Notes: generated by a model from the sequence alone, not told the origin. 64,000 bases of DNA from Candidatus Saganbacteria bacterium (GCA_026387795.1 JAPLLA010000019.1:2972-66971), one strand, 5' to 3'. Shown: positions 37,960-54,027, counted from the stretch's first letter. Made by a program: numbers and translations.

Positions 37960-38281
37960 TCCAGAAAAAGAAGCACAAAGGATAGTGGCGGAGTACTTAT
38001 CTGGGCTAGGGTGGGCCAGGCAGTGGCAGCAAGTGATAGAAAGAGAACCGCGGTCTTTTGGAAGGGACGAAAGAGAAGACAAGCTGCGCAAAGCAGAAAA
38101 GATGATGGAAGAAACCGAAGACCGCTTTAGCCAGCATGTGGAAAAATACCTCCACGATTCTTCGCCGGAAGCCAAACAAGTGTTGGAAAACATTCTAAAA
38201 AAACTTTCGCCTCGCCGCGACTTGGGGTTTTTCTGCCAGAGGATTTTGAGCCACATTAAAAACAAGCTGGGGATTTATTAG
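37937..38281 (+). CDS. hypothetical charged small protein
   Basis: 114-aa ORF; overlaps the 3' end of the 37199 gene; no motifs. Confidence 0.3.
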   Translation: MALPADSNPEKEAQRIVAEYLSGLGWARQWQQVIEREPRSFGRDEREDKLRKAEKMMEETEDRFSQHVEKYLHDSSPEAKQVLENILKKLSPRRDLGFFCQRILSHIKNKLGIY

Positions 38282-51400: not shown

Positions 51401-54027
51401 GGTTGTGCGGCAGCAGCTCTGGCAGCTTCTTCAGCAACTCTGGCAGCTTGTCTATTTGCTTCTTCCACATCATCGATTTTATCTTTTAAAGCTTGTTCTT
51501 TTTGTTCTAAATCTTTCTGGTCAGCAATGGCTTTAGGAGTAAAGCCCGCATTGCGAAGATCAATAGCGGCAGTTAGGTCAAAAGGGTTGGTTGGATCAAG
51601 AGCCCTGTCAATAAGAGCAATCCTGTCAACAACTTCCTGGTCAGCCGCAGCTTGTGTAGCAGCGGCAGCATTGGTTCTTTCTACGTCATCGATTGTATCT
51701 TTTAGAGCTTTTTCTTTGTCTACTAGATCTTTCTTATCAGCAATATCTTTAGGAGTAAAAACGTTATTGCGAAGATCAATAGCGGCAGTTAGGTCAAAAG
51801 GGTTGGTTGGATCAAGAGCCCTGTCAATAAGAGCAATCCTGTCAACCACTTCCTGGTCAGCAGTTACCTTTTCAGCAGCGGCAGCATTGGTTCTTTCTAC
51901 TTCTGTGATTTTATCTATTAAAGCTTTTTCTTTGTCTACTAGATCTTTCTTATCAGCAACATCTTTAGGAGTAAAGATATCATCGCGGACCATTCTAGCT
52001 TCGACAAGATCAAAAGTTCTGGTAGGATTAAGGACCCAGTCAATTTCAGCAATCCTGTCAATGACTTCCTGGTCAGCCGCAGCTTGGGTAGCAGCGGCAG
52101 CATTGGTTCTTTCTACGTCATCGATTTTATCTTTTAAAGCTTGTTCTTTGTCTACTAGATCTTTCTTATCAGCGACATCTTTAGGCTTAAACCCTGAATC
52201 GCGAAGAGCAATGGCAGCACTTAGGTCAAAAGGGTTGGTTGGGTCAAGTACCCTTTCAATAATGGCAATCCTGTCAACAACTTCCTGGTCAGCAGTTGCT
52301 TTTGCTTCTGCTTTTTCGGCTGCTTTAATCTTGGGAGAGGTGTTTCGAACCGCTTCTTGAAGTGTGTTCCTCTTTGCTTTTTCTACTCCTGCGTCTTTTG
52401 CTTCACGCAGTGCATCTGTTGCAGCCCTGAATGCTGCTTGGGCATCTGCTAATCGGTCTGCCGGGATAGTTGCCATAGCATCATCTGCGAATTCTTGGAT
52501 CCCAGTAAGTGCAGCTGCCATTTTTCTTTCTGCTGCATCTTTGGGATCTTTGGCTTCGGTTAATTCTCTTATGGTTTCTGCACCAAAGATTGCGGGGTTT
52601 TCTCCTTGTGCAAGGTGTCTTTTGAATTCTTCTGCCACCGTAGGGCTGTTTGTTTCCAGAACAGCAATTAATTCGCCAAGACGTCTTTTACCCATGTTTC
52701 TGATCCGAGATTCAAAAGCATCAAGAGTGGCATCCAGAACTAAGCCAGTAGCCCTCACATCTGCTATGAGTTTGGCAGCGCGTTTGGTGATCCCGGCTAT
52801 AGTTACTTCCCCGACTTCTCCTGTAAAAAGAAGCGTTCCTGCTGCGTCTAAAGTATCAATAGCAGGGTTAATTCTAAGTGCATCTGATTCCATTTGACCT
52901 GCCAAGGTGCGCAGTGTTTCTACCCCTTCGGCTGCTGTAATTAATCTTCCAAGTCTTGCAGATGTATCTGTTAAATTCGTTTTTGATCCTTTGGTGTCAT
53001 CGTTTAAGTTGAAGTAGGCATCATTCCCGGTAAGAAAAGCATCGATTCTTTCTTTTAATTCTTTGGCTTGATCTTTTTGGGAGACCCCGTCTGTTTGATC
53101 GAGGAAAGCATCCACATCCAAAGCCTCTTCCAAAGCAGTAAAGGCTTCGATGTCATCCCAAAGTTGGTTGTTTGTCTCTCTGTCGGTGCGGAGCACCCCA
53201 TTTCTAAAAACCATTTGAAGCAATCCGTATCTTTCGGATGCTTTTTCAATTCTGTGTCCCTTTTTCCCTGTATAATAAGAGGCGCTTTCTTTTGCGCGTT
53301 CAGCAGCAATTGCTTCGAGGGCTTTTTGTCGGTCCTTGTCTAACTGTTGCGCTTCTTGTTGAATAGCACTAAGTCCCCCTCTGGCAATCCGTCCGCCACC
53401 CTTAGCGAGTAAAATAAGGACTAAAGCTATAACTGCTCCTGCAACCCCTCCTACCAACACCCCTTCTATTGCGTAGGAAGAGATGCTTTTGATTGGAACC
53501 ATGGTCATCATTTTTAAAGCTATTCCTACTACCGATCCAATTCCTCCAAAAATTAGGGCATACCTGTACTTCAATGAGTCGGTCCAGTTCCCCTCGAATT
53601 TTCTCATCAGTTCTTGTACGCGATCAAAATGTTCCTGTTGTTTGTCTGGGGCTGGCGCTTGGCCAGAACCTCCCATCCCAGTATTTCCTCCCATGGTGCC
53701 TGGGCCACCAGGTCCCCCGGTTGTAGCCATCATCATTGCGCCGTTCCATAATCTTCCGGCTGTAGCTCCCATCCATCTGCTTGCAGTTCCATAACAATTG
53801 TATTGTTCTTGCACATGAGAACCGGTTAAGCCTCCTGCAAGCGCTAAATTATATATTGGAACTGTACGGGTACGAATAGCAGGCATATAAGCGGGATTTT
53901 GGAAACCGCCTTTTATTTCAGTCCAAGCTTTTCGTGCACCTTGTTTTCCTTTTTCATATCCCTTGCGTGCATATTCTCTGGCGCCGACCCCTTGTTTACC
54001 TAGCTCTATTGGCTCTCCACCCGGCAT
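48466..54027 (-). CDS. giant Ala/Glu-rich membrane-anchored coiled-coil protein (1853 aa) with 72-aa tandem repeats
   Basis: Gly/Met-rich N-terminal region; predicted TM segment YALIFGGIGSVVGIALKMM...VLVGGVAGAVIALVLILLA; long A/E/K-rich low-complexity region; ~4.5 copies of a 72-aa unit; GGGAGG SD. Confidence 0.65.
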   Translation of the reverse strand: MPGGEPIELGKQGVGAREYARKGYEKGKQGARKAWTEIKGGFQNPAYMPAIRTRTVPIYNLALAGGLTGSHVQEQYNCYGTASRWMGATAGRLWNGAMMMATTGGPGGPGTMGGNTGMGGSGQAPAPDKQQEHFDRVQELMRKFEGNWTDSLKYRYALIFGGIGSVVGIALKMMTMVPIKSISSYAIEGVLVGGVAGAVIALVLILLAKGGGRIARGGLSAIQQEAQQLDKDRQKALEAIAAERAKESASYYTGKKGHRIEKASERYGLLQMVFRNGVLRTDRETNNQLWDDIEAFTALEEALDVDAFLDQTDGVSQKDQAKELKERIDAFLTGNDAYFNLNDDTKGSKTNLTDTSARLGRLITAAEGVETLRTLAGQMESDALRINPAIDTLDAAGTLLFTGEVGEVTIAGITKRAAKLIADVRATGLVLDATLDAFESRIRNMGKRRLGELIAVLETNSPTVAEEFKRHLAQGENPAIFGAETIRELTEAKDPKDAAERKMAAALTGIQEFADDAMATIPADRLADAQAAFRAATDALREAKDAGVEKAKRNTLQEAVRNTSPKIKAAEKAEAKATADQEVVDRIAIIERVLDPTNPFDLSAAIALRDSGFKPKDVADKKDLVDKEQALKDKIDDVERTNAAAATQAAADQEVIDRIAEIDWVLNPTRTFDLVEARMVRDDIFTPKDVADKKDLVDKEKALIDKITEVERTNAAAAEKVTADQEVVDRIALIDRALDPTNPFDLTAAIDLRNNVFTPKDIADKKDLVDKEKALKDTIDDVERTNAAAATQAAADQEVVDRIALIDRALDPTNPFDLTAAIDLRNAGFTPKAIADQKDLEQKEQALKDKIDDVEEANRQAARVAEEAARAAAAQPKPAPEDPAVTAQKEAALRLLAKMKAGRSGGTPTGFPPGLTLEASKAVLIQDIHDKQAEIQEAEEMLANSALASLHADIRSNIVKTYLALFAEEKAAQEGAQAIPVPENADTADAHDALRGASYMLELVLRHASGDIENLEAALPAAAAELGAPILSMEDLHGTCFQKAAAETSLNLYLISSMLSGAARVDGALALAFLDTLIGVSVETSPLNQKAQEAKAALTPPVPEEPETVETVEGVFIDDGVPPVSLTGTTAATPLSTAAQTLQEVVVLLQSAEAEMRAAADDFLGKRVNGAESKAAVATQKREAVEKEITEVGKRIDEEKARIEKAPDHTVAGTPAYTYLKALEAAQATVDTRRAAIAARLEEIEAGLLDVAPSSAPMTAPAGSGPAELRTWAKRLSTEASERKDRRAALEAEKSGLLGELDGLPARLESLFAEADSAYQGNLAAYTGAAGREQKTQEDLLPGKKQNLGRAKGAETHAARKVKAERDHLVATKVEASGVPIPAYAAIDIILGFLPADEAASIRNAIIGPVAIDPATISRSLSVGRRMLQDAQAGILVAADNLLGGKLRGVKERQQSTQQELEGLSRTIEEKRRDIETLNTTLETVTKPALAEELEQASRALVQELEQRTVALRGELAGLQATGDKDSEKLAGMRRRREIEREIGKIEEEIGERFTVEERRITTAKAEKEREVADRVRDLGEEIAGLEGKRPGISERQNALGPQESALDAQLRTIAQKAQEALDAFQALAAQFKGMQEAEHLASAGAQAAAATFAALAEGPGARNVTPETSGLGTGGATVVAADAVAGTGRGEGDQARHEGPAEVARVTLDRALEESGAAGTVPVTPPAREEDALRTDAGGSAVELELRRGLPRHSRPVTSFLTADEQAMLSGLGKGKKATVAATTAPAPAEQVEAPTPAAAPIATAVAEPEPVAVAAPAPLSAKDAAVAGMRNAIAASRAALKKVAGTDPANA
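51440..52340. repeat. ~216-bp tandem repeat array (about 4.5 units) inside the 1853-aa gene
   Basis: near-identical DNA units starting near 51535, 51751, 51967 and 52183; protein unit DVADKKDLVDKE.ALKDKIDDVERTNAAAA..AADQEVVDRIALIDRALDPTNPFDL.AAIDLRN..FTPK. Confidence 0.65.

Follow-up and report, generated by a model that had tools for sequence, protein, structure and literature searches.

What do four long, co-oriented genes in the genome of a Candidatus Saganbacteria bacterium (GCA_026387795.1 JAPLLA010000019.1:2972-66971) make together, and on which side of the membrane does the product act? The genes lie on the minus strand of the window (the whole stretch of 64,000 nucleotides that was analysed), where four ORFs span exactly 38278-54027. 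ORF calls and the lengths of the GenBank proteins MCX5750551-54 agree on this, as they do with an earlier note on this DNA, which had also counted four co-oriented genes. The genes A-D constitute a real and unclassified operon that encodes three paralogs (B, C and D) and one unrelated protein (A). The reading preferred here, at a probability of about two in five, is that A-D build a membrane-tethered, largely helical, cytoplasmic-side scaffold that positions the enzymes of D.

The operon and its surroundings

Gene A (48466..54027, minus strand; 1853 aa, MCX5750554.1), which has a GGGAGG ribosome-binding site upstream, is followed on the same strand by B (46210..48381; 723 aa, MCX5750553.1), C (44279..46036; 585 aa, MCX5750552.1) and D (38278..44184; 1968 aa, MCX5750551.1). 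The intergenic gaps are 84, 173 and 94 nt, in the order A-B-C-D, and each gene has a start codon and a ribosome-binding site. 'Giant', as the genes had been called, is too strong a label: proteins of 1853-1968 aa are large, and one survey keeps 'huge' for those of >5000 aa (PMC11573180).

The operon is flanked by housekeeping genes (rnc, pyrC, hisB, ruvB, leuBCD), and the gene content of the window resembles that of a free-living anaerobe/fermenter more than that of an endosymbiont. At least one housekeeping gene near the locus, leuC, is frameshifted in the MAG. A REP-like hairpin pair (46088..46174, assigned to neither strand; GGAAACC-N16-GGTTTCC) occupies the B-C intergenic region, as had been seen; the copy that had been placed at the edge of the block (37024-37107) is 1.2 kb and two genes beyond the end of D. 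Another copy lies at 58809-58838, and a RAYT gene (REP-associated tyrosine transposase) occupies 55281-55925.

The GC content of A-D, which had appeared visibly higher than in the flanks, is barely so: 0.447-0.464 vs 0.446 +/- 0.023 for the 36 other ORFs, that is, within one SD. The slight rise is due to amino-acid composition (GC1 and GC2 are up), and GC3 is lower (0.29-0.365 vs 0.43 +/- 0.036). The codons used are the host's preferred ones, with G-ending codons avoided more strongly (an accentuated host bias). No boundary of an island is marked by a tRNA or integrase gene in the window, and the REP copies are dispersed genome elements. The single relative found, P0006, represents part of a D ortholog and sits at the syntenic position on a related metagenome contig (L002); the D-side junction, which is the one compared, is the same there as here. 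The fragment is 62-66% identical to the C-terminal domain of D with dN/dS about 0.11, which indicates purifying selection, and its syntenic position suggests vertical inheritance. A horizontally acquired island, of which codon usage, tRNA genes and L002 synteny give no sign, is disfavoured by the host-like GC and codons, by the lack of tRNA and integrase genes and by the D ortholog at the same junction.

Three paralogs and their shared module

Sequence comparison bears out the earlier note in that B, C and D form a genuine paralogous family: BLASTP aligns ~605 aa of C with D at 42% identity (E 4e-123), 468 aa of B with D at 40% (E 3e-67) and 344 aa of B with C at 43% (E 2e-58). They share two parts, a long-helix N-terminal domain of ~330 aa and, after it, an array of 3-8 W repeats, each a ~95-aa helical unit around a conserved Trp. 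The N-terminal domain comprises aa 1-340 of D (43165..44184, minus strand), with equivalents at ~aa 1-330 of C and aa 1-~340 of B. It is followed in B by ~4 degenerate W repeats, in C by three, and in D by seven W repeats, a PP2C domain, one more W repeat, an unassigned region and a transglutaminase-like C-terminal domain. The shared module had been put at ~600 aa, which holds in full for C and D only; in B, ~340 aa are aligned confidently and are followed by degenerate, repeat-level similarity. Of the sequence blocks picked out by eye, TPFQAAWLR and REGEEQAG..GCRDSLA.FK..LM.PVE are invariant or nearly so in the alignment, whereas B does not conserve DLVAFHKAQE and RIAFWE, which had been attributed to all three proteins. 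The N-terminal ~30 residues, described as variable, can be aligned among the paralogs and do not vary freely.

An AlphaFold2 model of C is all-alpha (pLDDT 76), with the N-terminal domain predicted as five long helices. Compared with known structures, the model finds only generic helical-hairpin/coiled-coil matches, and no specific fold match for the N-terminal domain; Foldseek brings up designed helical repeats as well as TPR proteins of IFT-A, at E > 0.006 and TM-score < 0.2. A profile search of 1.84 billion representative proteins returned no homolog of the module beyond the three paralogs themselves, and none was found in PDB, Pfam, NCBIfam, PADLOC, PHROGs, plasmids or phages. The module thus belongs to no family known to these collections, as had been surmised, and the Rhs, LXG and WXG100 types that had been left in play have no Pfam match at E <= 0.1.

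Within the N-terminal domain, a hyper-conserved core block (D 43592..43891, C 45432-45731, B 47786-48085; minus strand) is 76-79% identical at nucleotide level among the three genes. Synonymous divergence in this block is 0.36-0.57 vs 0.74 to saturated elsewhere in B, C and D, and this difference points to gene conversion as part of what keeps the core similar among the paralogs. Confinement of gene conversion to the core would fit paralogs that are bound to keep a common interface. The same comparison bears on the notion that B and C are truncated tandem copies of a D-like 5' part, non-functional and decaying, with only D and perhaps A at work. B and C indeed hold nothing that is absent from D, C and D share even a 35-nt upstream region (families D15 and D18), the module family is extremely rare, and leuC nearby is broken in the MAG. 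Decay is nevertheless highly improbable: outside the core, synonymous divergence is saturated, yet all three ORFs have stayed open through 585-1968 codons, with dN well under dS (pN 0.38-0.57 vs pS 0.47-0.83), translation signals kept in each gene, and a core that gene conversion maintains.

The W repeats are most numerous in D, where seven stand in tandem (41095..43164, minus strand; Trp 380, 474, 581, 676, 774, 879 and 978) and an eighth (39850..40134, minus strand; aa 1351-1445, Trp 1397) follows the PP2C domain. An HMM made from D repeats 4-7 recovers held-out units in all three paralogs (B 651-721, 18.9 bits; C 421-485, 14.9; D 1372-1437, 9.3; B 559-633, 8.5); none of 600 shuffles scored above 7.6. 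No TPR match is made by B-D in Pfam. The module profile does match TPR arrays weakly (P0004, E 6e-6; P0005, E 2e-4); the similarity is motif-level (ALWExL..HPD) and confined to repeats.

These arrays belong to TIR- and NB-ARC-type STAND proteins and are the only outside matches of the module profile, which raises the question of an intracellular conflict or defence module: a helical sensor-scaffold whose phosphatase and thiol peptidase would be turned on the cell's own proteins when triggered by phage or stress. Such systems typically employ large multi-enzyme proteins that carry repeat arrays, and Fic and DUF559 genes are present elsewhere in the window. On the other hand, the matches to P0004 and P0005 do not go beyond a motif in repeats, and neither an NTPase, nuclease or TIR domain nor any other domain recognised from defence systems occurs in A-D. 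PADLOC yields only LmuB coiled-coil noise over helical regions (E 1.7e-5 and 0.003), PHROGs only a PP2C-region PHROG of unknown function, and the locus sits among housekeeping genes in conserved synteny, not in a variable defence island. A defence role is considered very unlikely.

Enzyme domains of D and the anchored protein A

Aligned with its relatives, the segment of D at aa 1054-1281 (40342..41025, minus strand) is a PP2C (PPM) Ser/Thr phosphatase domain of the Stp1/PstP type with its motifs intact. PP2C_2 (PF13672) matches at 53.6 bits vs a gathering score of 24 (E 2.9e-14) and NF033484 at 97 bits (equivalog cut-off 230), PstP and Stp1 are matched in PDB at E ~1e-10 to 1e-11, and alignment with these two proteins places the motifs NED, DGMGGH, GMGST, IGDA and TDG; the GDSR motif reads GDAP in D. 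Bacterial Stp1, PstP and IreP are enzymes of ~250 aa, whereas in D the domain is set amid a 1968-aa helical-repeat protein. The window holds no Hanks-type kinase partner for it. As a class, Stp1/PstP-type PP2C phosphatases act inside the cell.

The C-terminal domain of D (aa ~1608-1957; 38314..39363, minus strand) has a weak transglutaminase/papain-like signature at the sequence level. Transglut_core (PF01841) matches aa 1772-1860 at 18.7-21.6 bits, under its gathering score of 23, and the pattern CC-x38-H-x5-D/x17-D is accompanied by the motifs GI(R)xxV(Y)xG and HxWV. D and its ortholog fragment agree at Cys1815/1816, His1855 and Asp1861/1873. The fragment itself has no Pfam match, and the domain has no PDB sequence match. 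The predicted order of elements (a helix after the Cys, then strands with the His) would fit the transglutaminase fold, in a low-confidence AlphaFold2 model (pLDDT 38) that is too poor to use as a structure. Enzymatic domains are thus found only in D among the paralogs, as the earlier note had it.

Protein A had been set apart as a different, membrane-anchored protein. It is indeed different, as hhalign gives a probability of 0.1 for relationship to the B/C/D module, and two hydrophobic segments ~6 residues apart (Kyte-Doolittle, 19-residue windows >= 1.6) form a hairpin at aa 156-215 (53383..53562, minus strand). Such a hairpin implies that both long tails lie on one side of the membrane; the charge of its flanks (K+R 6 vs 5) favours neither orientation. 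Beyond the hairpin are ~1640 aa, acidic and Ala/Glu-rich (the composition count bears out the richness in Ala and Glu noted for the proteins of this block), with four tandem 216-nt (72-aa) repeats (51456..52293, minus strand). This composition and scattered heptad-like segments suggest that A is probably largely helical. A crude heptad scan finds coiled-coil-like segments 10-20x more often than in shuffles, yet in only 1-5% of windows. The full-sequence IncD score of A, 33.9 bits, is above the Pfam threshold. It is spurious, a 22-residue motif summed over the four 72-aa repeats, and identity as an Inc protein was rejected: only profile positions 10-31 of 141 are covered, and one repeat taken alone reaches 18.4 bits vs a gathering score of 27.

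Scaffold or exported effector

The most serious competitor to a scaffold, itself unlikely, is a family of exported effectors or toxins, in which the N-terminal domain would be a trafficking or anchoring module, D the full-length effector, A an anchor or translocon-like partner, and B and C payload-less forms or adaptors. A lineage-specific N-terminal domain with an anchored partner upstream mirrors Neisseria MAFA/MAFB and Amoebophilus APD1/APD2, and Tox-TGase domains are known from toxins and effectors (PMC3482391). The hydrophobic hairpin of A is two-lobed and Inc-like, and 2.3 kb upstream of A there is a gene for a short PilQ/GspD-type secretin. Polymorphic toxins combine an N-terminal domain or signal for a known secretion route (signal peptide, TPS, LXG, WXG, PAAR/Rhs and the like), a C-terminal toxin that differs among paralogs or strains, and a downstream immunity gene (PMC3482391), and none of the three is seen here. 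MAFB-N and APD1/APD2 follow signal peptides (PMC3482391, which words the point differently for a third such domain, Microscilla-N), whereas a Kyte-Doolittle scan of B, C and D shows neither a hydrophobic N-terminal segment nor any other signal-like one, and no known trafficking domain is found in A-D (Pfam, E <= 0.1). The absence of a Sec signal is compatible with export by T3SS, T4SS, T6SS or T1SS; genes for T3SS, T4SS, T6SS and T7SS are absent from the 64-kb window. The modular architecture once proposed stands. Only one of the three paralogs carries a payload, however (B and C end in W repeats), and the secreted-effector or polymorphic-toxin logic finds no support in these tests. No immunity-like gene follows D: the downstream neighbour (ORF 37937-38281) is convergent on the opposite strand and belongs to a conserved pyrC-lipoprotein gene group that is present in L002 too. 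PP2C has 0 occurrences among the toxin domains catalogued in PMC3482391. In addition, purifying selection preserves the C-terminal domain of D in the sole ortholog fragment, nothing ties the genes to PADLOC systems, PHROGs, phages or plasmids, and the window does not have the gene content of an endosymbiont.

For the scaffold, operon layout, paralogy, the helical model of C, the held-out W repeat, gene conversion limited to the N-domain core and the syntenic, constrained D ortholog are the supporting evidence; its placement on the cytoplasmic side is favoured by the lack of a signal-like segment in B, C and D, the same-side tails of A and the class of the PP2C domain. The same preferred codons as the host, the housekeeping flanks and the free-living fermenter gene content also count for it. 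Counting the other way are the near-equal flank charges of A, the sparse heptad segments, the lack of a Hanks-type kinase in the window, the sub-threshold transglutaminase match and a gene layout also known from MAFA/MAFB-type toxins. In such an assembly the N-terminal domain would be a docking or hetero-oligomerisation module that unites B, C and D with each other or attaches them to anchored A, the W-repeat arrays would be spacers or binding surfaces, and D, going by its sequence signatures, would bring in Ser/Thr dephosphorylation and a thiol peptidase or cross-linking activity. It is a more doubtful proposition that B/C/D are a new family which, with A, makes up either a new Saganbacteria-specific organising apparatus or a new class of exported effector. 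If so, the apparatus would be a membrane-associated cytoskeletal or organising one with built-in phosphatase and cross-linking enzyme, and the effector class would use an unrecognised N-terminal docking module.

Among known systems, MAFA/MAFB-N and APD1/APD2 resemble this locus in having an N-terminal domain restricted to one lineage, tandem paralogs and a gene for a membrane-anchored protein upstream, and the docking or homotypic clustering ascribed to MAFB-N/APD1/APD2 follows the same logic as would apply, by analogy, to the N-terminal domain of B, C and D (PMC3482391). They differ in having a signal peptide or lipobox, highly polymorphic C-terminal toxins and immunity genes (PMC3482391), and no sequence relationship to B/C/D was detected. 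With chlamydial Inc proteins A shares a bilobed hydrophobic hairpin and long flanking tails; the IncD match, however, is off that hairpin, the host is not a chlamydia, and the window has no T3SS. Compared with Tox-TGase and PF01841, D has a like Cys-His-Asp pattern at a score below the gathering score.

The nearest functional analogues may be membrane-anchored coiled-coil landmark or hub proteins, such as Caulobacter TipN and Vibrio HubP/FimV, and heteropolymer-forming coiled-coil-rich proteins. Among these the proteins of Cyanobacteria come from a sister phylum. Two reports document heteropolymer- and filament-forming coiled-coil-rich proteins in cyanobacteria (10.1101/553073, 10.1101/674176). 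No sequence or specific fold similarity connects A-D with hub or coiled-coil-rich proteins, and these lack the PP2C and transglutaminase-like domains that D has. The likeness is to A, with its N-proximal transmembrane segments and its long, acidic, probably helical and repeat-bearing tail. Families of the hub and coiled-coil type are also typically lineage-specific and devoid of Pfam domains, and B, C and D could co-assemble in a comparable way.

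A four-gene operon and its shared helical module

Genes A, B, C and D lie in tandem on the minus strand and constitute an operon of 16 kb (38278-54027), about one quarter of the window. A (48466-54027; 1853 aa) is followed by B (46210-48381; 723 aa), C (44279-46036; 585 aa) and D (38278-44184; 1968 aa), with intergenic gaps of 84, 173 and 94 nt. Upstream of A is a GGGAGG ribosome-binding site, and C and D have in common a near-identical leader with AAGGAAGG. The four products exactly match GenBank MCX5750554, MCX5750553, MCX5750552 and MCX5750551, respectively, all encoded on a 67.7-kb MAG contig assigned to 'Candidatus Saganbacteria bacterium' (D annotated as 'protein phosphatase 2C domain-containing', the others as hypothetical), and clustering at 90% identity leaves each of them a singleton. 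An earlier note, made from the sequence by eye, had described this locus as a set of four giant genes, three of them sharing a ~600-aa module. That observation is essentially right, with corrections to the extent of the module in B, to GC content, to the placement of REP elements and to the word 'giant' (at 1853 and 1968 aa, A and D are large instead).

BLASTP clearly identifies B, C and D as paralogs: C and D are 42% identical over ~605 aa (E 4e-123), B and D 40% over 468 aa (E 3e-67), and B and C 43% over 344 aa (E 2e-58). When the module profile is run against all six frames of the window, these three alone match, and A bears no relationship to the module (hhalign probability 0.1). The '600-aa module' consists of two parts, an N-terminal domain of ~330-340 aa and tandem helical repeats of ~95 aa. 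In an AlphaFold2 model of C (three-sequence alignment; mean pLDDT 76, pTM 0.42), the N-terminal domain comprises five long helices (39-69, 75-110, 112-142, 149-204 and 207-252). Each W repeat has a conserved Trp at its centre and, after it, a polar stretch, often with a final Pro. These Trp residues are at 380, 474, 581, 676, 774, 879 and 978 of D, with one more at 1397, beyond the PP2C domain; at 351, 450 and 553 of C; and at 377, 588 and 687 of B, which also has a degenerate unit near 494. The DLVAFHKAQE and RIAFWE blocks singled out in the earlier note are kept between C and D, where they lie inside W repeats, but are absent as conserved blocks in B.

A full repeat model would be circular, and an HMM was therefore made from D repeats 4-7 alone. 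It recovers held-out repeats at B 651-721 (18.9 bits) and C 421-485 (14.9 bits), and with lower scores at D 1372-1437 (9.3 bits) and B 559-633 (8.5 bits); among 600 shuffled control sequences, the highest score is 7.6 bits. Support for a W repeat family from this test is real but modest.

One block of the N-terminal domain (C aa 95-196) is hyper-conserved. Its nucleotide copies on the minus strand, at 43592-43891 (D), 45432-45731 (C) and 47786-48085 (B), are 76-79% identical, and the conservation extends to synonymous sites: paralog dS is 0.36-0.57 in the block, compared with values from 0.74 to saturation in the remaining segments of the three genes, and dN is 0.20-0.24, compared with 0.53-1.05. 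The simplest reading of these rates is gene conversion among the tandem paralogs, limited to the ~300-nt block, which partly explains why the block catches the eye. Such conversion fits paralogs that need a common interface.

Searches for relatives

The contention that these proteins belong to no known family is strongly borne out by profile, domain, structure and pattern searches. Searched by HMMER against 1.84 billion representatives of ~15 billion proteins, the module profile finds only B, C and D and two weak matches (E 6e-6 and 2e-4), both to TPR arrays of TIR- or NB-ARC-type proteins. The ALWEQLAADHPD repeat of those arrays resembles the W motif, at the level of motif only. With C, D and the C-terminal 528 aa of D as queries, a word-indexed search (5.8 billion clusters) returns only the query itself and one 389-aa JGI fragment. 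Searches of Pfam, NCBIfam, PADLOC, PHROGs and PDB sequences give no specific match to A, B or C, nor to D outside its enzymatic domains; profiles of the module and of the D C-terminal domain likewise have no meaningful match among PDB sequences. It is very unlikely that the operon is a conflict or defence module. (Three conflict-type proteins are encoded outside it: Fic/DOC at 15695-16576, minus strand; a DUF559 endonuclease-like protein at 57618-58004, plus strand; and a DUF4143 protein at 62948-63928, minus strand.)

Foldseek comparison of the C model with PDB and BFVD yields nothing at E <= 0.001 (TM-scores mostly <0.2). No relative is detected either when the module and the D C-terminal domain are scanned against GTDB species genomes, JGI metagenome contigs and IMG/VR, or when both are compared with plasmids and phages by tblastn. 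Matches to LmuB, Rad50, intermediate-filament and HBM were rejected as coiled-coil or compositional noise. Among public contigs, exact look-up has no record of D; C is present on a 2.3-kb Logan contig in 7 samples. No paper tying Saganbacteria to effectors or large proteins was found in the literature.

The one relative is the JGI fragment, P0006, encoded on a 3.4-kb contig (JGI 3300045006, Ga0438302_0048392). Because its ORF runs off the end of the contig, it is the 3' fragment of a longer gene. P0006 is 62-66% identical in amino acid sequence to the C-terminal domain of D (dN/dS ~0.11); 5' of this conserved domain the two are unalignable. The contig is collinear with window ~36000-39400, sharing a convergent 115-aa ORF (63% identity, dN/dS 0.21), a CarboxypepD_reg lipoprotein (75.7%, 0.12) and pyrC (87.5%, 0.07). 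Collinearity and dN/dS together imply that a related organism has D as a constrained gene at a matching place in the chromosome, and suggest vertical inheritance. This syntenic ortholog rules out D as an assembly artefact or one-off insertion. That the paralogs are partly decaying duplicates is most improbable. Two further differences between D and P0006 are a 16-residue poly-proline run in the linker of the latter (contig positions 1-200), just before the conserved domain, and a 28-aa insertion directly ahead of the predicted catalytic Cys of D, absent from P0006.

Composition and surroundings

The GC content of A-D (0.447-0.464) is not visibly higher than that of the 36 other window ORFs (0.446 +/- 0.023), contrary to the earlier note; a small excess in codon positions 1 and 2 is due to Ala/Glu-rich composition, and GC3 is lower (0.29-0.365 vs 0.43 +/- 0.036). 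The preferred codons are those of the rest of the window, with G-ending codons avoided more strongly (GCG 0.06 vs 0.17, GAG 0.13 vs 0.25, CAG 0.24 vs 0.40). This reads as accentuated host bias and not as a foreign signature. The avoidance exceeds that of neighbouring genes in all four (G3 0.11-0.18 vs 0.20-0.22); expression level, an mRNA property or history are possible causes. The window contains no tRNA, integrase or Rfam RNA family, and the flanking genes are housekeeping (rnc, pyrC, Na/Ca exchanger, hisB, ruvB and leuBCD). Composition, codon usage, the lack of tRNA and synteny all speak against a foreign island.

REP elements are present, as had been noted, although their placement had been imprecise. 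The hairpins (GGAAACC-N16-GGTTTCC, 30 nt) occur in five copies at three sites (37024-37107, 46088-46174 and 58809-58838), mostly as inverted pairs, with zero expected by chance. They are dispersed genome elements and not island borders. Together with a gene for a REP-associated tyrosine transposase (RAYT) at 55281-55925 (NF047646, E 1.5e-23), they suggest that this Saganbacteria genome carries a REP/RAYT system.

Judged by gene content, the rest of the window indicates a free-living anaerobic sugar fermenter, given its GH42, GH94, NrdD and leucine, histidine and pyrimidine biosynthesis genes. Side by side after nrdR (10779-15367) lie two genes of the NrdD family (anaerobic ribonucleotide reductase; 627 and 697 aa); they may stem from a tandem duplication or encode two different class III-like enzymes. 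The leu operon is usually compact. Here the leu genes are broken up by the gene of a 916-aa TPR protein (29924-32674, minus strand), which separates leuC from leuD/leuB (26717-28302), with an Omp85-like gene (28484-29482) also in between. LeuC itself (32731-33934, minus strand) is apparently split by a frameshift near 33100-33150 into overlapping pieces, a 281-aa N-terminal one (33089-33934) and a 141-aa C-terminal one in another frame (32731-33156); this is either a pseudogene or a MAG assembly or sequencing error.

A proposed scaffold compared with known systems

Protein A has two adjacent hydrophobic segments, aa 156-177 and 184-215, ~6 residues apart. As a hairpin, the pair places both tails on one side of the membrane. 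A contains 18% Ala, has an Ala/Pro-rich C-terminus and carries four tandem repeats of 72 aa (51456-52293, minus strand; 216-nt period). Its above-threshold match to Pfam IncD (33.9 bits) is an artefact, in the sense that a motif of 22 residues (positions 10-31 of the 141 in the profile) is summed once per repeat; a single repeat scores 18.4 bits (<27).

D alone extends into enzymatic domains. Residues 1054-1281 match PP2C_2 of Pfam (53.6 bits, E 2.9e-14), NCBIfam Stp1/IreP (97 bits, under the equivalog cut-off) and, in the PDB, PstP, Stp1 and tPphA (E 1e-10 to 1e-11); the motifs NED, DGMGGH, GMGST, IGD(A) and TDG are found. The C-terminal ~350 aa match Transglut_core at a sub-threshold 18.7-21.6 bits (gathering score 23), and the pattern GGCCRHRSPVLQMAYQEAGIRSAVYMGF ... 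GAHEWVMFDP ... LADPN fits a transglutaminase/papain-like Cys-His-Asp signature. The AlphaFold2 model of this domain, from a two-sequence alignment, has pLDDT 38.

The reading that we tentatively favour, with a probability of roughly 40%, is that of a scaffold tethered to the membrane, probably at its cytoplasmic face. A would be its anchor, B, C and D would dock or hetero-oligomerise through their constant N-terminal domain, and the W-repeat arrays would be spacers or binding surfaces; D would serve to place two enzymes, a Ser/Thr phosphatase and either a thiol peptidase or a transglutaminase-like one. In assigning this role we infer beyond domain content.

Saganbacteria, a sister lineage of Cyanobacteria, are uncultivated, and to our knowledge their cell biology is essentially unknown. 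The operon, conserved and under selective constraint, brings together an orphan helical module with a membrane anchor and with two enzyme domains (the transglutaminase-like one predicted). Should the system prove structural or organising, it would be a cytoskeletal element specific to the lineage; should it prove exported, a new trafficking module would be defined. For the present, it is well-characterised protein dark matter rather than a mechanistic discovery, and a suitable target for deeper-sampled structure prediction and heterologous expression.

The main rival, a secreted effector or polymorphic toxin family as the earlier note had proposed, is unlikely. Every defining feature that is testable within the window is missing: the window shows neither a secretion signal nor a known trafficking domain, and no immunity gene or specialised apparatus for secretion. 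(Genes related to secretion are limited to those upstream at 55913-57524, which encode a 391-aa PilQ/GspD-type secretin with Secretin, Secretin_N and STN matches, after a 153-aa ORF with a faint GspC-like match; no further T2SS or type IV pilus genes lie nearby.) Its best published analogues (PMC3482391, section 37) are MAFA/MAFB-N of Neisseria and APD1/APD2 of Amoebophilus, in which a lineage-specific constant N-terminal domain goes with an anchored partner encoded upstream, and Tox-TGase domains are known toxin modules in the same source. In MAFB-N and APD1/APD2, however, the N-terminal domain stands behind a signal peptide and the C-termini are polymorphic; neither is seen in B, C and D, and PP2C is absent from that toxin-domain catalogue. 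What occupies 38278-54027 is a well-delimited orphan operon rather than a demonstrated new system, and its products are a variation on kinds already known: large helical-repeat proteins with PP2C and transglutaminase-like domains.
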